Shown here: piece after piece, positions 1 to 13,901 of the stretch | How the letters are laid out: every line of letters starts with the position of its first letter | Position numbering within the stretch: position 1 is the first letter of the stretch | IMG/VR virus record: IMGVR_UViG_2675903575_000011 | Length of the DNA: 15,248 nt | Reading direction: 5' to 3' (one strand) | Source: a virus | Taxonomy: Duplodnaviria; Heunggongvirae; Uroviricota; Caudoviricetes | Translations under genes and position numbers: made by a program | Notes under the pieces: model-generated | What the model saw: only the letters and a program-made list of their open reading frames with translations | Told to the model about the DNA's origin: nothing | The model's database searches: none

Positions 1-1059
1 TTAAATGCGCTGGTCATTTGATATAGGTAAAATGCTTGTAAAGAGTTTTTCGTCATATAGTGCGTACTCAGGTATGTAATCACCATTGCTTTTACCTGTT
101 TGGAAGATAGAGGGGTCCTTGTCGATTAAAACATATAACTCAATGAGAATATTTCTTAGTCCCCAAAGCATTTGCTTTAGTTGTTTTTCATCATTGAATG
201 AGATGCTTATGGCTTCCGTATCTGGTTTTGGATGTTCAAGAATTATTGAGAAAAGATGTTCTTGGTATTTATAATCAATTCCAAGTAGTCTGCAAAGTTG
301 AATTATGTTTGATTCTATGAGTTGTAGGCTAACTAATTGGTCGTCATGATTTTTGTTGTTGGACTTAAGCGATTTGTTTATGTTGTTATAATGATTTGTT
401 GTTTTTCGAATAAAATCTTCTTCGACAACGGTGCTATAGCCATTATCAATGGAAGATGATTTGAAAATATTTTTATAAAGAGTGTACGGATGAACTACAG
501 ATAGTTCAATACTGTCTATATCACTAGTTTCTTTATTTAATCTTGATAATTTAAATGTTGGTAGTGTTTGGAATATATCAGCGAAGCTTTTCAGATGTGA
601 GTAATATGAATCAGTGGTATTTTTTTCAATAACAAGATTGATTTGCTTTTGTGTTTTTTCTATTTGGTTCTCTGTTTGTGTGGTTCTATGTATATTGTTG
701 ACGATTGCTGCAAGAGGTACCGAAGAAGCTAAAATAAATAATGGCAATTTAGAAATGTCAAGAAAGTGATTAAAACCGTCTGATGTGAAATTTAAATCGT
801 GGCCTTTCCAAGCCCAGAGGCCATACAAAACAAACATTTTTAACGGTACGATAATAGATGCTATGAATAATGGTTGTTTTAATAGATTTTTCTCATTTAG
901 TTTAAGCCAATTGAAGCAATAGAACATAAGTATCAATCCAAGTATATAAGCTACACTAAAGAAGATAAAAACTCTTGGACGATTAGTGTATATCAATGCT
1001 AAGGCAATTAAGATAGTAATGATTGCGTAGGTAATGATTAATGTGAGCTTTTTTTTCAT
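1..1059 (-). CDS. AT-rich membrane protein of unknown function (about 352 aa; 4 predicted N-terminal TM helices plus about 230-aa soluble C-terminal domain)
   Basis: Complete ORF on the minus strand (stop TAA at 1..3). Preferred start is ATG at 1057..1059 (MKKKLTLIITYAI...), 4 nt after the int stop, rather than the upstream in-frame ATG at 1101 that would overlap int. Hydrophobic stretches LTLIITYAIITILIALALIY, VFIFFSVAYILGLILMFYCF, LFIASIIVPLKMFVLYGLWAW, LPLFILASSVPLAAIV. Composition is markedly more AT-rich than the phage core by eye. Confidence 0.5.
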   Translation of the reverse strand: MKKKLTLIITYAIITILIALALIYTNRPRVFIFFSVAYILGLILMFYCFNWLKLNEKNLLKQPLFIASIIVPLKMFVLYGLWAWKGHDLNFTSDGFNHFLDISKLPLFILASSVPLAAIVNNIHRTTQTENQIEKTQKQINLVIEKNTTDSYYSHLKSFADIFQTLPTFKLSRLNKETSDIDSIELSVVHPYTLYKNIFKSSSIDNGYSTVVEEDFIRKTTNHYNNINKSLKSNNKNHDDQLVSLQLIESNIIQLCRLLGIDYKYQEHLFSIILEHPKPDTEAISISFNDEKQLKQMLWGLRNILIELYVLIDKDPSIFQTGKSNGDYIPEYALYDEKLFTSILPISNDQRI

Positions 1060-1063
1060 TCTA

Positions 1064-2080
1064 TTAAACCAAATTATGTAAAGGATTTTTTGTAACAGCA
1101 TCTTCTAGATGGTCTGGAGAAAAGTGTGCGTAAACCATCGTCATTTTTATATCGGCATGGCCCAATATTTCTTTAAGGACAAGAATATTCCCGCCATTCA
1201 TCATAAAATGACTGGCGAATGTATGACGCAGCACGTGGGTGCATTGGCCCTCTGGTAGCTCGATGCCTGCTCGCTTTACTGCTCGTTCAAAGGCTTTTCT
1301 GCACGGTGTGAATAGTTTCCCTCTGTTCTTGGGGAGTTCATCATACAGATTTTGAGATATCGGCACGGTACGATTTTTCTTACCTTTTGTCTTGGTATAG
1401 GTGATCCGGTATTTTGATAACTGATGGCCCTGCAAGTTTTCTGCTTCACTCCATCGCGCACCAGTAGCCAGGCATATTTTTGCAATCATTAGTAGGCTGG
1501 TGTTTTGAGATTCGGCGCAGGCATTAAGCAGGCGTTTGATTTCGTCCGTGGAAAGAAAAGCCAATTCACCTTCAGCAATTTTGAAGGTTGGAAGCCCTGC
1601 CAGCGGGTTTGGTGCGGACCAGTGCCCTAGTTTTTTCAATGTACCGAACACCGATGACAGGTTACGCTGCTCAAGATTAACTGTGCGAGGTTTAACGGGT
1701 GACATGAACGAGCCGTCTTCATTTTGGACCTCCCCCTTTAATCTGGCTTCCCGATATTTTGTGAAATCACCTGCTGTCAGCTCAGAGGCGATGGGATCGC
1801 CTAGACCATTACAGATAATTCTAAGTTTCGCCATCAGGCGTTTGGGGTCTGCGAGTGTTTGACCATATAGGGAATACCACTGCTCAATCACTTCTGATAA
1901 TCGCCGCCGATCTTCCTTCTCACCAAGCCATGGCTTTTTGTTTACTTCGTCCATGGTGAAGCTTTCAAATGCAATGGCTTCGCCTTTGGTAGCAAATTGC
2001 TTACGCACGCGCTTACCATTGCGTCCATTGGGATAGCACTCACACAACCATTTTCCGTTCGGCTGTTTTCTGATGGTCAT
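1064..2080 (-). CDS. int: Tyrosine-type site-specific integrase (P2/186 Int family)
   Basis: 338-aa ORF with a C-terminal catalytic region typical of tyrosine recombinases (…HVLRHTFASHFMMNGGNILVLKEILGHADIKMTMVYAHF…: the R, H-x-x-R and Y residues). Lies directly downstream of the repressor gene on the same strand, as in 186 (cI-int operon). Confidence 0.9.
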   Translation of the reverse strand: MTIRKQPNGKWLCECYPNGRNGKRVRKQFATKGEAIAFESFTMDEVNKKPWLGEKEDRRRLSEVIEQWYSLYGQTLADPKRLMAKLRIICNGLGDPIASELTAGDFTKYREARLKGEVQNEDGSFMSPVKPRTVNLEQRNLSSVFGTLKKLGHWSAPNPLAGLPTFKIAEGELAFLSTDEIKRLLNACAESQNTSLLMIAKICLATGARWSEAENLQGHQLSKYRITYTKTKGKKNRTVPISQNLYDELPKNRGKLFTPCRKAFERAVKRAGIELPEGQCTHVLRHTFASHFMMNGGNILVLKEILGHADIKMTMVYAHFSPDHLEDAVTKNPLHNLV

Positions 2081-4658: not shown

Positions 4659-4957
4659 CAAGGGCAGTGCGTATCCATCAATTAAAAATTGCACCTAAGT
4701 ATTTCAACGTTGTGGTTGCAGGTCAAAAGACGGCTGAACTTCGTAAAGACGATCGTGGCTATAAAGTTGGTGATGTTCTTTCTCTTTGCGAATGGAAGCA
4801 TGGCGTATTTACGGGTAGGGAATGGGCCGCTGTTATCTCTCATGTGCTTCCGGTTAATGACGTCATGGCAGTTTCAGAACAATGGGTGATGCTATCAATT
4901 CGCCCATTAACCCCATTAGAAGCTTTAGGATATGTTATTGCAGGAGGTGCTGTATGA
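4655..4957 (+). CDS. DUF3850/ASCH-like small protein
   Basis: 100-aa ORF starting at ATG 4655 (ATGA overlap with the TraR stop). N-terminus [33 protein letters not shown] matches the conserved DUF3850/ASCH signature as recalled. Confidence 0.6.
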
Positions 4958-5811
4958 GCACCATCCTGAAATGGGCGGGTAATAAAACTACCATTATGTC
5001 CGAACTGAAAAAACATCTTCCTGCTGGCCCGCGACTGGTTGAACCTTTCGCGGGTTCCTGTGCTGTGATGATGGAGACGGATTACCCCAGCTATCTTGTT
5101 GCGGATATTAATCCTGATTTAATCAACCTCTATAAAAAGGTTGCTGCTGATTGTGAATCGTTTATATCTCGCGCCAGAGTTTTATTTGAGATCGCAAACA
5201 GGGAGGTGGCTTATTACAACATAAGGCAGGAGTTTAATTACTCAACTGAAATTACTGATTTCATGAAAGCGGTATATTTCCTGTATCTCAATCGTCACGG
5301 TTACCGTGGTTTATGTCGCTATAACAAGAGCGGGCATTTCAACATTCCCTACGGTAATTATAAAAATCCGTATTTCCCTGAAAAAGAAATTCGCGCATTT
5401 GCAGAAAAGGCCCAGCGAGCAACGTTTATCTGCGCCAGCTTTGATGAAACGCTGGCGATGTTGAAGGCGGGGGATGTGGTGTATTGCGATCCGCCGTATG
5501 ACGGTACGTTTTCCGGCTATCACACTGATGGTTTCACTGAAGATGACCAGTATCACCTGGCATCCGTTCTTGAACATCGGTCATCAGAAGGACATCCGGT
5601 CATTGTTTCTAACAGTGACACATCCCTGATCCGTTCGCTGTATCGCAATTTTACTCACCACTACATCAAGGCAAAACGCAGCATCGGCGTAGCAGCTGGT
5701 GAGAGTAAATCTGCAACAGAAATCATCGCTGTTTCTGGGGCACGCTGCTGGGTGGGATTTGATTCTTCGCGTGGCGTGGATAGTTCTGCCGTGTACGGAG
5801 TGCGTGCATGA
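4954..5811 (+). CDS. dam: DNA adenine methyltransferase (Dam-like, D12-class N6-adenine MTase)
   Basis: Motif I region ([11 protein letters not shown]) and catalytic DPPY motif ([11 protein letters not shown]); N-terminus LKWAGNK typical of Dam. Start ATG 4954 overlaps the upstream stop (ATGA). Confidence 0.9.
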
Positions 5812-8228
5812 GCCATGCTGATATGAACAACTGCAGCGGCTTTAACGAGGCCGCCGCAGCATTCTCATGGAACAGCCCGAAAAAGGCTATTAACCCTTAT
5901 CTGGACCCGGCGGAAGTTGCGCCGGTTTCTGCGCTTTCAAACCTGATCACTCTGTACGCTGCCGATAACGAGCAGGAACAACTGCGCCGCGAGGCACTGA
6001 GTGATCAGGTCTGGGAGCGTTATTTCTTTAATGAATCCCGTGATCCTGTCCAGCGCGAAATGGAGCAGGATAAGCTTATTAGCCGGGCAAAGCTGGCGCA
6101 TGAGCAGCAGCGTTTTAATCCGGACATGGTCATACTGGCGGACGTTAACGCCCAGCCTTCCCATATCAGCAAGCCGCTGATGCAACGTATTGAATACTTC
6201 AGCAGCCTGGGCAGGCCAAAGGCTTATTCCCGCTATTTGCGTGAGACGATTAAGCCATGTCTGGAACGACTGGAGCATGTACGCGACAGTCAGCTATCCA
6301 CTTCTTTTCGCTTTATGGCAAGCCATGAAGGGCTGGACGGCCTGCTGATCTTGCCTGAAATGAGTCAGGATCAGGTGAAACGCCTGTCTACTCTTGTCGC
6401 TGCGCATATGAGTATGTGTCTTGATGCCGCTTGTGGTGATTTGTACGCCACCGATGATGTTAAGCCAGAAGAAATCCGCAAGACATGGGAAAAGGTGGCA
6501 GCAGAAACCCTGCGACTGGATGTCATACCGCCTGCGTTTGAGCAACTCCGCCGGAAAAGAAACCGCCGTAAACCCGTGCCCTATGAACTCATTCCGGGTT
6601 CGCTGGCGCGTATGTTGTGCGCCGATTGGTGGTACCGGAAATTATGGAAGATGCGTTGCGAATGGCGGGAAGAGCAGTTGCGTGCTGTTTGCCTGGTCAG
6701 CAAAAAAGCATCTCCCTATGTCAGCTATGAAGCCGTGATGCATAAACGTGAGCAGCGCCGTAAGTCGCTGGAGTTTTTCCGTTCTCATGAACTGGTGAAC
6801 GAAGACGGCGACACGCTGGACATGGAGGATGTGGTAAACGCCAGCAGCAGCAACCCTGCGCATCGCCGCAATGAGATGATGGCCTGTGTTAAAGGTCTGG
6901 AGCTTATCGCGGAAATGCGCGGTGACTGCGCCGTTTTCTACACCATCACCTGTCCGTCACGTTTCCATTCCACGCTAAATAACGGCAGGCCCAACCCGAC
7001 CTGGACAAATGCGACGGTAAGACAAAGCAGTGATTATCTGGTCGGCATGTTTGCTGCATTTCGTAAGGCGATGCACAAAGCCGGGTTGCGCTGGTATGGC
7101 GTGCGGGTGGCTGAGCCGCATCATGACGGCACAGTTCACTGGCACCTGTTGTGTTTCATGCGCAAAAAAGACCGCCGCGCCATTACTGCATTGTTGCGTA
7201 AGTTTGCTATCCGTGAAGACCGCGAGGAGCTGGGTAATAACACGGGGCCACGCTTTAAGTCTGAGCTGATAAACCCGCGCAAAGGAACGCCGACTAGCTA
7301 CATCGCGAAATACATCAGTAAGAACATTGACGGGCGTGGTCTGGCTGGCGAGATCAGCAAGGAAACGGGTAAATCTCTGCGTGATAACGCTGAATACGTT
7401 AATGCCTGGGCGTCTCTGCATCGTGTTCAGCAATTCCGCTTCTTTGGCATTCCGGGGCGTCAGGCTTACCGTGAACTGCGATTGCTGGCTGGTCAGGCGG
7501 CAAGGCAACAGGGTGACAAAAAAGCAGGTGCGCCGGTACTGGATAACCAGCGCCTTGATGCCATTCTGGCTGCAGCTGATGCTGGTTGTTTTGCCACCTA
7601 CATCATGAAGCAGGGCGGCGTACTGGTTCCCCGTAAATATCACCTCATCAGAACCGCTTATGAAATCAACGAAGAGCCGACCGCCTATGGCGATCACGGC
7701 ATTCGTATTTATGGCATCTGGTCACCCATTGCAGAGGGCAAAATCTGCACTCATGCAGTGAAGTGGAAAATGGTTCGTAAGGCCGTTGACGTTCAGGAGG
7801 CGGCAGCCGACCAGGGCGCTTGCGCCCCTTGGACTCGGACTCGTGGCAATAACTGTCCCCTTGCTGAAAATTTGAACCAACAAGGGAAAGACAAATCAGC
7901 TTATGGGGATACCAGAACGGACATTACCCGCATGGATGACAAGGAGTTGCACGATTACCTGCACAGTATGAGCAAAAAAGAGCGCCGGGAACTGGCTGCA
8001 AGGTTACGCCTGGTGAAACCGAAACGGCGTAAAGACTACAAACAGCGAATTACAGACCATCAGCGACAGCAGCTCGTCTATGAGCTGAAGTCCAGAGGAT
8101 TTGATGGCAGCGAGAAAGAGGTCGGTTTACTCCTTCGCGGCGGCAGTATTCCGTCAGGAGCAGGCCTGCGTATCTTCTATCGGAACCAGCGTTTGCAGGA
8201 AGATGATAAGTGGCGGGATCTGTATTAA
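5808..8228 (+). CDS. A: Rolling-circle replication initiation endonuclease (P2/186 gpA family)
   Basis: 806-aa ORF in the gpA position after the early genes. HUH-type motif ([10 protein letters not shown]) with downstream Tyr-containing region (YIAKYISKN). Start ATG 5808 overlaps the dam stop (ATGA). Confidence 0.9.
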
Positions 8229-8380: not shown

Positions 8381-8569
8381 ATGCAGGACTATTTTTTGGA
8401 GTCTTTGAAGCTCCAGCGCATTGATTTTTTTCTTAAGCTTGTAGCGGCTAGTGAGTGTAGTGATGAAGAGAAGGGGCTGGCCCTGCAGTGGGTTTCTGAA
8501 CTAACAGATGAACTCATGGCAAAAATCAGAACCCACGAATACAACCGCTCAATGGATGTCATCAGCTGA
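8381..8569 (+). CDS. Small SOS-controlled protein (62 aa); candidate Tum-like antirepressor
   Basis: RBS aggagga at 8371..8377, ATG at 8381; first gene downstream of the LexA box, in the position of the 186 tum operon. Function is inferred from context only. Confidence 0.4.
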   Translation: MQDYFLESLKLQRIDFFLKLVAASECSDEEKGLALQWVSELTDELMAKIRTHEYNRSMDVIS

Positions 8570-8579
8570 GGTGACTTTT

Positions 8580-8813
8580 ATGCGCATTGAAATAATGATC
8601 GATAAAGAGCAGAAGATTAGCCAGTCTACCCTGGACGCTCTGGAGTCCGAGCTTTACCGCAACCTGCGCCCCCTGTATCCCAAAACGGTAATTCGTATCC
8701 GCAAAGGTAGCTCTAACGGTGTGGAACTTACCGGACTGCAACTGGACGAAGAAAGAAAACAAGTGATGAAAATTATGCAGAAAGTGTGGGAAGACGACAG
8801 CTGGCTGCATTAA
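8580..8813 (+). CDS. dinI: DinI-family protein
   Basis: 77-aa ORF, MRIEIMIDK...LDALESEL...WEDDSWLH, closely parallels E. coli DinI as recalled (MRIEVTIAK...IDALAGEL...WESADDWF). RBS gaggtg at 8567..8572. Confidence 0.8.
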   Translation: MRIEIMIDKEQKISQSTLDALESELYRNLRPLYPKTVIRIRKGSSNGVELTGLQLDEERKQVMKIMQKVWEDDSWLH

Positions 8814-8948
8814 GAAACGTTGCTGGCGTCTGAACTTGCTTCTGGCGTCAGCAAGGTTGAACAACGAGCCCTTGCGAGGCGTTAGCTCTGTAGTGCATGT
8901 CTATGCCGCATGAGATCGCATGATCGTTTGAGGATCGTTTTTGCTAAG

Positions 8949-8972
8949 GCCCGCCAGAACTGGCGGGCTTTT
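8949..8972 (+). terminator. Rho-independent terminator closing the LexA-controlled operon
   Basis: Perfect GC-rich inverted repeat GCCCGCCAG / CTGGCGGGC (8949..8957 and 8960..8968) followed by TTTT (8969..8972). Confidence 0.7.
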
Positions 8973-9017
8973 GCGTAGATCATGCAGGTGCATGAAAACC
9001 ACTGCATAAAGCGGGCA

Positions 9018-9036
9018 GGCGTGGCGGGGATACGAG
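9018..9036. other. Putative cos (cohesive-end) site
   Basis: GGCGTGGCGGGGATACGAG; the first 13 nt match the P2/186 19-nt cohesive-end sequence as I recall it (GGCG[A/T]GGCGGGGAAAGCA[C/T]). Located between the replication/SOS region and the portal gene, as expected. Confidence 0.4.
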
Positions 9037-9137
9037 CGCGCGCAACAGTGTAACAATCTGGATCTAATGTGATATAGTTACTGTAAATATTATTAACTAT
9101 TCTTATATGCATTATTAAATATTTTAATGGAGCGTTT

Positions 9138-10811
9138 ATGGAAAAATATCAAGATGAGGAATATGTAGATGATTTAACTGAGCGTGTTTTTCTCATTAAG
9201 CAACAACTGGAAGCGGGAAAACTAAAAATAGCTCATCATCTTGTAGAAGGTTTTATTGAAAGTTTTAAAAGAATAAGGCTGCGACAGGATGGTAAAGTTG
9301 ACCCTTCTACTGTTGATGGCAGAATAAGGGCTATGGGAGCAGCGGTTAATCACTTTTTAGAAAGAGAAGATATAAAAAACAAATACTCTATTCAGGACTT
9401 GCAAAGTTCTTACTTTAATATTCTTTTTAGTAATTTTGGCGAGTTGTTTTATCTGATGAAAAAAACTAATGCAACGCCACATAAAGCATCAAGTTTTTTT
9501 TCTCAACAAGAAGAATATGTTAAGCAAATAGAAGATATTTTTCCTGAGTTATATAATCAGGTAATAGAGTTTTGGCAGGTAACATCCGATATTGGTGTAA
9601 TACATTTGCAGGATGGTTCTCAGTTTAAAGCTAATTTTTCTGGTGACTTATTTCCTGCATTTGATGAGAATGCTGTCTCTATTGCAGGGTTGTATGTTGA
9701 TACTATTTCACTTCCATGTCCTATATTAAGAGTCGGTCGTCTCTATGAAAAGTCAGATAAGGCTGAGTTTACAAGGATACTTCTGAAGCATGTCCTAACA
9801 TGTATGACATATAAAGAAGTAGCGCTTGAAGATATAGAGCCAGCAATAGTATTAATTTTGCCGGATAGAAGAGATTTTGAAACTGAGAGCAAAAAAAATT
9901 TGATGAGTTTTTGTGAGCCTTATGCTCTGACTCATGCGCAATATCTCTATGATCGACGGTTCGAAAGCTACGATGAATTTCGAGATTTTAGTTATTCGAT
10001 GAATGATATTGATGCTGTTCTTAAAAATATTAAGAGAGCAGATAGACTTATTTTTGATACAGCATGGGGGCTAAATCCAAAAACTCAATTAGAAAAACTA
10101 CTATCTGATAAAAAAAGAATATCACGTAATGTTGTTGGTGATCATGCTGGAATGGAGGTTTTCCTTTCCTGCATTGGAAGAATGCCGCAAGCCTATTCAG
10201 CAAAATGTAATGCACAAGAACTTGGTAGTACTCCATATATAAATGCAGACACATCTTGGCTCTATTATACTTGGCTTATTGAGTACGAATCTCTTAATTT
10301 TGATGTCAATGATATTGAACTAAAAAATTTGCATATGGTTCATGCGTTATCTGCTGGTATGCAAGATGGTTTTTCATGGTTAGGAAATGTACCGGTCAAT
10401 AAAATAATTGAGTTGAGACGTAACAAATTGATGGAGGATGTAAGATCCATCTTATCAAATGGTGTTGACTCTTTAATCAATTCTTCGGCAGAGAGCTTTT
10501 CGAGGACAACGCAAAAAGTAATTGATAATGTAGACCGGGCTTTTATTGAACATCAAAGGATTCTTGCAAAAGCCCAAAAAGAGAAATTGAGAATTTACGG
10601 ACTAGATGTCCTACCATGTATCGCAAATGGTGCTATAGCAATTGCTGGAGCGCTGACTGGCAATACTACTTTAACGGCGTTAAGTGCAGGCCTTGGAGTA
10701 ATAGGTATTCCGAGTATTAGTGATATCAAATCTAAATTTAAGCAGAGGCAAGAGAAGCTTGATGCCTATCAACGTTCTGTTACAGGTATACTCTTTAGCC
10801 ATAAATCTTAA
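9138..10811 (+). CDS. Orphan AT-rich 557-aa protein, unknown function; candidate phage-borne defence/exclusion protein (soluble N-terminal region plus C-terminal glycine-rich hydrophobic hairpin)
   Basis: Long uninterrupted ORF with RBS (ggag at 9129..9132) 5 nt before ATG 9138. Composition visibly AT-rich versus flanking phage genes. No Walker A or other motif I can recognise. C-terminal ANGAIAIAGALTG...LSAGLGVIGIPSI is hydrophobic and glycine-zipper-like. Convergent with the portal gene and ended by a hairpin. Confidence 0.7.
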   Translation: MEKYQDEEYVDDLTERVFLIKQQLEAGKLKIAHHLVEGFIESFKRIRLRQDGKVDPSTVDGRIRAMGAAVNHFLEREDIKNKYSIQDLQSSYFNILFSNFGELFYLMKKTNATPHKASSFFSQQEEYVKQIEDIFPELYNQVIEFWQVTSDIGVIHLQDGSQFKANFSGDLFPAFDENAVSIAGLYVDTISLPCPILRVGRLYEKSDKAEFTRILLKHVLTCMTYKEVALEDIEPAIVLILPDRRDFETESKKNLMSFCEPYALTHAQYLYDRRFESYDEFRDFSYSMNDIDAVLKNIKRADRLIFDTAWGLNPKTQLEKLLSDKKRISRNVVGDHAGMEVFLSCIGRMPQAYSAKCNAQELGSTPYINADTSWLYYTWLIEYESLNFDVNDIELKNLHMVHALSAGMQDGFSWLGNVPVNKIIELRRNKLMEDVRSILSNGVDSLINSSAESFSRTTQKVIDNVDRAFIEHQRILAKAQKEKLRIYGLDVLPCIANGAIAIAGALTGNTTLTALSAGLGVIGIPSISDIKSKFKQRQEKLDAYQRSVTGILFSHKS

Positions 10812-10816
10812 TGTAG

Positions 10817-10837
10817 AGGGCCGAGGTATTCGGCCCT
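10817..10837 (+). terminator. Hairpin between the convergent 557-aa gene and portal gene; likely terminator
   Basis: AGGGCCG (10817..10823), 7-nt loop, CGGCCCT (10831..10837), followed by TAGTTTTAT on the plus strand. Confidence 0.5.
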
Positions 10838-10842
10838 TAGTT

Positions 10843-11874
10843 TTATATGAAACTGTATGGCATGAATTTTATTATGTCATCTTTGAGCCATTTATTGAGT
10901 TCTTCTATTCTGTTTTGTAGCGGTATCAATTCATTACGCATAAAAACCTTACTAGCCTTCTCCACATCCCCAAATCCCCCAACATTATTCGGCATTATCC
11001 CCATCATTTGCGGCGGCACTCGGTGTGCTGCCATCATGTCATCCCGGCTCACGTTCTTGATATTCAAAAATTCATCCTTTGCCGCGACTTCTGACAGAGG
11101 AATAATCTGAAGCCCGTCTTTTTTGCCGTTAGGCGAGTACATAAACAGGTTGCGGAAGTTGCCTGGACCTTTGGCGCTTTTCATCGCGTTACGGAGATTG
11201 TTTACATCTTCCTGGTTCTGCGCGGCGTCGGTCATGTACATGATGAAGCCTGCATGGCTGCCGTTGATGTAATACTTACGGCGGAACAGCGTGGCGGACT
11301 CGTTGAGCAGGGCTGACGGAATGGCAGAAAGATAACCGGGCAGGCCGTAGATCTCCTGGTTGATATCTGGTTCCATCAGATGAAAAATGCTGCCTTTCGT
11401 GAACTGATACGGTTGCGTGGTCATACCGTATTGCACAAACCAGTAGGTATCCAGGTCTAACCCGCGTCGGGTATATTTTGCCAGGGCAGGCTCAAGAGCG
11501 ATAATTTCACCGAACCGGTTCGTGCGTTTCTCCAGATAGGCGTTACCAAATACCAGATAGTCCTGCACAAAACGTGAAAAAGCCTGCTGGCTGAGCAGCG
11601 GGTGAGGGATGTAGGTGCTGGTCAGAATGTTGCACTTTACTGCAATCGGGGAACTATGATGAACGGCAGCGCGGAAGGTGCGCGCCAGTCCGTCAAAGCT
11701 GACGGGCGGCTCATACCAGCGGTCCATCTGTACGCATTCCACATAATCCAGCAGTTCTCGGCGGTCCAGAACAGGAACGGGATCGCCGAAGCTGAATGCT
11801 TCGGCTGTAGTTTGACTTTTAAGCTGGATCTGTTTCGTCGCCGCAGCGCGGTTCTTCTTACTCTTTCCCATCAA
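10843..11874 (-). CDS. Q: Portal protein (P2 gpQ family)
   Basis: 343-aa ORF, the size of P2 gpQ, immediately downstream of and overlapping (ATGA) the large terminase gene on the minus strand, as in the P2 PQ operon. Confidence 0.85.
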   Translation of the reverse strand: MMGKSKKNRAAATKQIQLKSQTTAEAFSFGDPVPVLDRRELLDYVECVQMDRWYEPPVSFDGLARTFRAAVHHSSPIAVKCNILTSTYIPHPLLSQQAFSRFVQDYLVFGNAYLEKRTNRFGEIIALEPALAKYTRRGLDLDTYWFVQYGMTTQPYQFTKGSIFHLMEPDINQEIYGLPGYLSAIPSALLNESATLFRRKYYINGSHAGFIMYMTDAAQNQEDVNNLRNAMKSAKGPGNFRNLFMYSPNGKKDGLQIIPLSEVAAKDEFLNIKNVSRDDMMAAHRVPPQMMGIMPNNVGGFGDVEKASKVFMRNELIPLQNRIEELNKWLKDDIIKFMPYSFI

Positions 11875-13385: not shown

Positions 13386-13901
13386 NNNNNNNNNNNNNNN
13401 NNNNNNNNNNNNNNNNNNNNNNNNNNNNNNNNNNNNNNNNNNNNNNNNNNNNNNNNNNNNNNNNNNNNNNNNNNNNNNNNNNNNNNNNNNNNNNNNNNNN
13501 NNNNNNNNNNNNNNNNNNNNNNNNNNNNNNNNNNNNNNNNNNNNNNNNNNNNNNNNNNNNNNNNNNNNNNNNNNNNNNNNNNNNNNNNNNNNNNNNNNNN
13601 NNNNNNNNNNNNNNNNNNNNNNNNNNNNNNNNNNNNNNNNNNNNNNNNNNNNNNNNNNNNNNNNNNNNNNNNNNNNNNNNNNNNNNNNNNNNNNNNNNNN
13701 NNNNNNNNNNNNNNNNNNNNNNNNNNNNNNNNNNNNNNNNNNNNNNNNNNNNNNNNNNNNNNNNNNNNNNNNNNNNNNNNNNNNNNNNNNNNNNNNNNNN
13801 NNNNNNNNNNNNNNNNNNNNNNNNNNNNNNNNNNNNNNNNNNNNNNNNNNNNNNNNNNNNNNNNNNNNNNNNNNNNNNNNNNNNNNNNNNNNNNNNNNNN
13901 N
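13386..13901. other. Assembly gap (516 N)
   Basis: Uninterrupted run of n; length is consistent with the X counts in the ORF track. Confidence 1.

Follow-up and report, generated by a model that had tools for sequence, protein, structure and literature searches.

A DitB-like candidate defence gene in the cos-adjacent cargo slot of an Escherichia coli P2/186-like prophage

The window analysed here, a 15,248-nucleotide stretch filed as IMG/VR record IMGVR_UViG_2675903575_000011, is a section of an Escherichia coli P2/186-like prophage, and near-identical DNA is present in E. coli chromosomes, for example that of strain PE15. Between the gene that encodes gpA (replication protein) and the one for the portal (Q), the window carries a gene for a protein of 557 amino acids (aa), which a preliminary description had singled out as horizontally acquired cargo encoding a candidate new anti-phage protein. 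Profile comparisons link the core of this protein to DitB of the two-gene defence system Aditi, and we propose, with a probability of roughly 0.55, that the gene is a DitB-like defence gene that is independent of DitA.

Judging by its signals, a ribosome-binding site, a promoter-like site and a terminator hairpin, the gene looks like an independent transcription unit (Table 1). The open reading frame (ORF), its ribosome-binding site, the hairpin and the convergence with the portal gene are all present as first described. Only 31 bp separate the gene from the stop of the convergent portal gene, and this gap is occupied by a G+C-rich 10-bp hairpin (10816-10838) at the position equivalent to the tQ terminator of P2. 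Promoter-like sites around 9050-9078 showed no enrichment over shuffled sequences. An Rfam scan of the window found no RNA family and thus no retron or non-coding RNA partner. The G+C content (GC), which the preliminary description had proposed to measure, amounts to 35.3% for the ORF 9138..10811, with 24.6% at third codon positions, as opposed to 50.4% for the rest of the window, bearing out the claim that the gene is AT-rich.

The location in a variable cargo locus of the P2 family, as previously suggested, coincides with the published gpA-gpQ hotspot of P2, which is described as a defence-system reservoir (Rousset et al. 2022, PMC9122126; re-analysed 2026, PMC13586616). The gene lies between gpA and Q beside cos, and the slot varies in content, holding known defence genes in related phages. 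The P2 genome's last 50 nt together with the cohesive end align to window positions 8986-9030 (82% over 45 nt, E 7e-8); the gene is therefore located after cos, between cos and Q. Homology to relatives with other cargo ends at about 9043-9046 on the left flank and resumes at about 10871-10913 on the right, inside the final 10-23 codons of Q, so that the C-terminal codons of Q appear to be exchanged along with the cassette in cargo swaps. In the same slot and orientation, the relatives carry a Hypoth_Ymh protein (ON470620), a retron St85 effector with its reverse transcriptase (NC_047818) or an Abi-alpha/AIPR protein (NC_049452). Of 5,426 complete E. coli genomes, 1,236 contain the flanks and only 17 the whole query including the gene cassette. 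The rarity among flank-bearing genomes (17/1,236) and the GC of 35% agree with horizontally acquired cargo and contradict the opposite possibility of a syntenic core gene of P2-like phages with normal GC.

The protein had already been catalogued at this hotspot, as WP_024235280 is included in Table S5 of PMC9122126 in arrangements of the form 'hypothetical + DinI + hypothetical'. The earlier comparison with the P2 genes old and tin was correct in that the hotspot is common to all three, and the gene shares with them and with other gpA-gpQ cargo the cos-adjacent position, the AT-richness, the apparently independent transcription and the fast swapping among near-identical prophages. However, old and tin precede cos and lie on the opposite strand, whereas this gene follows cos, and its cassette replaces the final codons of Q. 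PADLOC revealed no relationship in sequence between the window protein and Old, Tin or any Rst system. In Klebsiella relatives, an extra insert of about 845 bp (L011, L012; 813..1658) lies between DinI and the cos-proximal segment (window 8811..8895). The hotspot therefore has a pre-cos sub-slot besides the post-cos sub-slot occupied here. A Citrobacter prophage with a 79%-identical homologue of the window protein bears an extra 390-aa orphan gene in the pre-cos part (L002 6448..7620, minus strand), which had no Pfam or PADLOC match.

The preliminary description had regarded the gene as an orphan of no recognisable family, which did not survive closer comparison. The window protein has no match in Pfam, PHROG or NCBIfam, and the sole informative library match came from the PADLOC run on the locus that had been proposed at the outset: the DitB model matched with E 7.3e-10 and 36.2 bits, aligning aa 195-452 with profile positions 95-344 of 361. 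The same model also matched 12 of 47 divergent members of the protein family described below (best E 1.1e-10). Starting from two DitB sequences published with Millman et al. 2022 as supplementary material, we collected 26 DitB relatives; in the profile-profile comparison, hhalign aligned the family with DitB at a probability of 97.3% (E 2e-11) over 319 columns, family positions 81-434 corresponding to DitB 5-331. On these profile alignments, the core of the window protein (aa ~84-436) is a distant homologue of DitB and covers nearly the whole of it (5-331 of 361). Landmarks common to both families are IQxxY, FW, DP, ILP, AQ and TPxI, mostly aromatic or proline residues. As a control, a canonical DitB scored 340 bits on the DitB model, and the neighbouring DitA, which also carries the Pfam domain DUF5677, scored 616 bits on the DitA model.

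Aditi consists of DitA and DitB, which are without recognisable domains according to the authors who described the system, and the Aditi of Saccharibacillus kuerlensis is marked as verified (Millman et al. 2022). Both DitB and the family of the window protein lack a Pfam domain and a solved structure, and both occur in defence contexts. Aditi requires DitA (DUF5677, ~490 aa) encoded beside DitB, whereas the family described here comes without DitA in the loci searched. No window ORF tested gave a PADLOC match to DitA, and tblastn with DitA had no hit at E 1 or better, either in the window or in 33 other loci. A fusion of DitA and DitB was considered as well and rejected, since hhalign gave a probability below 1% for the family against DitA. 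DitB, in turn, lacks two parts that characterize this family: about 80 aa at the N-terminus, and about 120 aa at the C-terminus that make up the stalk, hairpin and tail. The hosts also differ, being of the Firmicutes type for DitB and mainly Proteobacteria for this family.

The family is large and conserved. An exhaustive profile search yielded 761 clusters at 50% identity, 264 of these below E 1e-30, and a word-indexed search yielded 212 clusters at 90% identity. Members are nearly always 545-565 aa long, and every source name for them is 'hypothetical protein'. A scan of representative genomes found them in Enterobacterales, Pseudomonas, Burkholderiales/Comamonadaceae, Hyphomicrobium, Candidatus Electronema and two Bacteroidota, to which protein searches added Aeromonas and Aquitalea. 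Mean column identity was 62% among 27 sequences down to 43% identity. In 47 diverse sequences, reaching down to about 20% identity, the residues conserved in at least 90% are Q89, Y92, W146, H156, K164, G169, P173, Y186, D188, T189, P193, P195, P242, R348, P366, A370, S373, W374, R427 and R436. A Pfam scan of these 47 members gave no recurrent match, and a literature search for WP_024235280 or a 'DitB-like' protein found no mention. Some distant members have N-terminal extensions: a domain of about 190 aa (aa 1-190 in P0225, P0239 and P0198) had no Pfam match and only one stand-alone homologue and was thus uninformative, and the extension of P0217 (aa 1-300) contains a helix-turn-helix (HTH).

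The three strings highlighted in the preliminary description, CIANGAIAIAGALTG, LSAGLGVIGIPSI and ILPDRRDFETESKK (aa 240-253), were all found in the protein, and the absence of a Walker A motif ([AG]x4GK[ST]) was confirmed. A nuclease of the PD-(D/E)xK type, for which ILPDRRDFETESKK had been offered as a weak motif, was rejected. D243 is kept in 24 of the 47 sequences, E250 in 8 and K252 in 7, leaving P242 alone conserved, and neither Pfam nor PDB profile searches nor fold searches returned a nuclease. The poor conservation of D243, E250 and K252 therefore leaves the suggestion unsupported.

The genomic context of the family elsewhere is diverse. A family member is the sole gene shared by 21 loci from different taxa, the next commonest gene cluster being present in three; the gene therefore would act alone or with host factors. 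Besides the same P2 slot in Citrobacter, the carriers include an island that has an integrase, an Ogr/Delta gene and two DUF2971 genes, a P4-integrase/AlpA island of Aeromonas located between mutS and recA, a locus where a PAAR protein lies upstream and an HTH protein and a weak reverse-transcriptase (RVT_1) match lie downstream, and the ends of P4-like satellites with a Zn-ribbon/Toprim/DUF927 primase and a Psu-like gene in Enterobacter soli and Pseudocitrobacter. The occurrence in satellites is notable beside the reported near-absence of defence-gene exchange between P2 and P4 (PMC13586616). The family members at the satellite ends (L014 5571-11671; L026 2166-10186) stand at 57% identity, and in L026 the gene still precedes a convergent portal-like gene, as in P2.

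We also surveyed the 128 genes lying within four genes of a family member at 17 loci. Strong PADLOC matches among these neighbours were ThsA (E 6.5e-202), two ThsB, Old (E 1e-193), RT-TIR type XII (E 1e-175), a type IIG restriction-modification enzyme and PDC-S28, and lower-scoring ones were the AriA, LmuB, PtuA, AbiLi and MADS models. Pfam identified integrases, TIR_2, STALD, an MmeI methyltransferase domain and IS200 in the neighbourhood.

The AlphaFold2 (AF2) model of the window protein is chiefly helical with four short strands, at a mean predicted local distance difference test score (pLDDT) of 82 and a predicted template modelling score of 0.74. When the core was modelled alone (aa 155-455), the pLDDT fell to 63.6 and the strands were lost, indicating that the core is no independent domain and suggesting that the N-terminal helices are needed for folding. 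These helices (aa 1-83) lie outside the DitB alignment. Fifteen of the 47 divergent members weakly matched Avs1c, the small protein of AVAST type 1, in a region mapping to about aa 10-85 (best E 2.4e-6), although no STAND NTPase partner lies nearby here and the window protein itself gave no match to the Avs1c model up to E 1, which makes the likeness a lead only. Sequence-profile searches of the PDB with two family alignments (A1, A2) and the DitB profile gave nothing below E 0.04.

The C-terminal module begins with a long helix (aa 454-507) running into a hairpin, VLPCIANGAIAIAGALTG-NTT-LTALSAGLGVIGIPSI (aa 491-527), followed by a basic tail that ends, in the family alignments, in a conserved (S/T)P(T/V)G(L/I)LF motif. 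Among 216 full-length members, the longest uncharged run in this tail region has a median of 37 aa, and the best Kyte-Doolittle mean over 19 residues (KD19) has a median of 1.70, reaching at least 1.6 in 68%. The hairpin of the window protein has a best KD19 of 1.62, arms of 18 and 16 residues and Gly or Ala at 13 of its 37 residues, and is flanked on both sides by K/R-rich helices. DitA and DitB have no comparable segment, the best KD19 of DitB being 1.32. The hairpin is a conserved, family-specific element that could insert conditionally into the membrane, anchor the protein there monotopically or form an interface for oligomerisation. A LeoBC match in PADLOC (positions 392-509 against aa 430-540, E 0.0046, 14 bits, 1 of 47 members) hinted at a relation of the C-terminus to the bacterial dynamin-like proteins of Eleos; it was judged to be probably compositional, reflecting a helix with a hydrophobic hairpin, as the GTPase domain and P-loop of LeoBC are absent here.

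Table 1. Annotated features of the 15,248-nucleotide window, with the evidence or remark for each
Feature	Position	Strand	Evidence or remark
Integrase	1064-2080	minus	
CI-type repressor	2084-2722	minus	
Dam-type (D12 class) orphan adenine methyltransferase	4882-5811		Early operon, upstream of gpA; strong PADLOC 'orphan MTase' matches
Replication protein gpA	5808-8228		
62-aa ORF and DinI-like gene	8381-8813 together; DinI-like 8508-8813		
Hairpin with T-run	8941-8972		Separates DinI operon from downstream DNA; read off sequence
cos-like cohesive-end site (GGCGTGGCGGGGATACGAG)	9018..9036	.	Alignment of P2 cos junction
Swapped cargo cassette: promoter, gene, terminator, final portal codons	9047..10870	+	Homology breakpoints, GC, rarity
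Sigma-70-like promoter candidate GTAACA-17-TATAGT, TG before -10 (extended -10)	9050..9078	+	Consensus scan, 9/12 matches
GGAG ribosome-binding site, 5 nt upstream of ATG	9129..9132	+	Read off sequence
557-aa coding sequence, ATG start	9138..10811	+	Identical to WP_024235280 ('hypothetical protein', also in PE15)
N-terminal helical region (aa 1-83)	9138..9386	+	AF2 helices 7-25, 33-45, 61-82
DitB-like core (aa 84-436)	9387..10445	+	PADLOC, hhalign
Uncharged Gly/Ala-rich helical hairpin (aa 491-527)	10608..10718	+	Family conservation
Basic C-terminal tail (aa 528-557)	10719..10808	+	Family alignments
Terminator-like hairpin, possibly bidirectional	10816..10838	+	Terminator scan: 10 pairs, 6 G-C, then T-run
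Portal gene (Q), convergent	10843..11874	minus	Large terminase beyond portal

Elsewhere in the window, a second AT-rich orphan ORF (1..1101, minus strand; 366 aa, 31% GC) lies just downstream of the integrase gene on the same strand, with a 38-nt overlap. Pfam and PADLOC gave no match for it, and only PHROG 17460, of unknown function, was found. This ORF and the integrase occur together in 12 of the 5,426 complete E. coli genomes; in PE15, whose prophage contains the 557-aa gene, the slot between integrase and attachment site holds a Panacea-domain protein and a hypothetical protein instead. The ORF is probably another variable cargo slot and a further defence candidate. The Dam-type methyltransferase (4882..5811) is ordinary for this phage group and relevant to restriction evasion. 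The very low GC of the composition profile at 13387..13901 is an artefact, because 515 masked N interrupt the region of the large-terminase gene there.

Taken together, the hotspot location, the rarity and foreign GC, the DitB homology, the stand-alone nature, the defence-gene neighbours and the conserved family suggest a defence gene, and from context and distant homology we infer that the protein probably protects the lysogen from other phages. The proposal of a candidate new anti-phage protein is thereby favoured as far as its function is concerned, with its core linked to the known Aditi. Several points weigh against a DitB-like, DitA-independent defence gene. Positives made up about one-third of the hotspot candidates cloned and challenged with an 8-phage panel, so that residence in the hotspot is no proof of defence, and WP_024235280 is missing from the table of tested systems in the same study (PMC9122126). 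A score of 36 bits, compared to 340 bits for canonical DitB, denotes a distant homologue and not a DitB orthologue. The predominance of aromatic and proline residues among the shared landmarks speaks for a fold common to both families and not for a catalytic site that they share. Moreover, two later surveys class the domains or mechanism of Aditi as unknown, and our literature search found no paper describing the mechanism; the homology to DitB thus supports 'defence' and is silent on how it would be achieved. The fold search with the AF2 model found no match in the PDB or BFVD and suggested no activity.

The hotspot statistics can also be turned around. With about two-thirds of the cloned candidates showing no phenotype on a small panel and no enzymatic motif recognisable in the protein, the gene might be a moron without a role in defence that rides in the variable slot, be it a gene for lysogenic conversion or fitness or a selfish toxin of the addiction type. 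We regard this as unlikely in view of the distant homology to a validated defence protein, the repeated defence-gene neighbours in unrelated taxa and the positions of the family in the P2 hotspot and at the ends of P4-like satellites. Of the P4 hotspot loci of unknown content, 6 of 8 proved defensive when tested (PMC13586616).

Preferring the DitB-like defence gene, we considered how it could act. The gene would be single-gene defence cargo of the P2/186-like prophage, expressed in the lysogen from its own promoter. The N-terminal helical region and the DitB-like core, both cytoplasmic, would sense or bind the infecting phage, and the C-terminal module of stalk helix, hairpin and tail would take over the output role of DitA: it would either insert conditionally into the inner membrane or associate with it, in the manner of abortive infection, or mediate oligomerisation. 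This assignment of sensing to the core and output to the C-terminal module, possibly via the membrane, is tentative. The suggested architecture, with a soluble region and then a hydrophobic helical hairpin at the C-terminus as a potential disturber of the membrane, resembles that of defence systems with transmembrane effectors, such as 2TM-1TM-TIR and RT-nitrilase+TM (Rousset et al. 2022, PMC9122126) or the membrane effectors of CBASS (a defence system), Thoeris and retrons. Here, however, one polypeptide combines the putative sensor with the hairpin, which is rich in Gly and Ala and of only marginal hydrophobicity, and no signalling enzyme is present.

The membrane step faces objections of its own. 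Simple Hessa sums, calculated with no position weighting, came to +4.2 and +3.1 kcal/mol for the two arms (family median +3.9), and the AF2 confidence at the hairpin is 62-68. The membrane-perturbing hairpin of the preliminary description is accordingly conserved, as it implied, but only marginally hydrophobic (KD19 1.62, about +3 to +4 kcal/mol per arm), which makes a membrane effector role plausible rather than established and gives no standard transmembrane helix call. We therefore consider a hairpin effector acting at the membrane possible but doubtful.

A membrane-associated hairpin could alternatively act in superinfection exclusion at the envelope, by tethering the cytoplasmic domain to the inner membrane and blocking DNA entry or early steps without killing the cell. 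Prophage proteins of the superinfection-exclusion (Sie) type are commonly membrane-associated, the gene is prophage-encoded with its own promoter, the basic flanks on both sides of the hairpin fit an in-in topology, and the hotspot location fits equally well. Yet the marginal hydrophobicity of the hairpin, the absence of any hydrophobic segment from the homologue DitB and the presence of the family in chromosomal defence islands beside intracellular systems render this explanation unlikely, too. A counter-defence or inter-phage competition factor, such as an inhibitor of a host or satellite system, is very improbable: hotspots can also carry anti-defence cargo and the family occurs in helper-type (P2-like) and satellite-type (P4-like) elements alike, but anti-defence proteins are typically small, unlike this protein of 557 aa with its conserved architecture of several parts, the family is present in chromosomal islands not tied to phages, and the homologue is DitB.

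A defence candidate in the P2 hotspot is expected, and this protein was already catalogued there as 'hypothetical'. What is new is the link to Aditi, with a large family that would represent a DitA-independent, single-gene version bearing its own terminal modules, and thus a first functional lead for 761 clusters of proteins. Aditi is among the few validated defence systems without a recognisable domain or known mechanism. A natural variant that lacks DitA and has a different, simple C-terminal module separates the role of the DitB-like core from that of the output, and, as a one-gene construct that is easy to handle by E. coli genetics, it offers a practical route into the mechanism of Aditi. 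A more far-reaching and less probable reading is that the family is a widespread and self-sufficient, single-polypeptide branch of Aditi in which the effector, instead of DitA, is a Gly/Ala-rich hairpin that conditionally inserts into the membrane. If so, the gene would represent a new single-gene abortive-infection system of P2-like phages, P4-like satellites and chromosomal islands, and DitB-like cores would be phage-sensing modules, providing the first mechanistic handle on Aditi.

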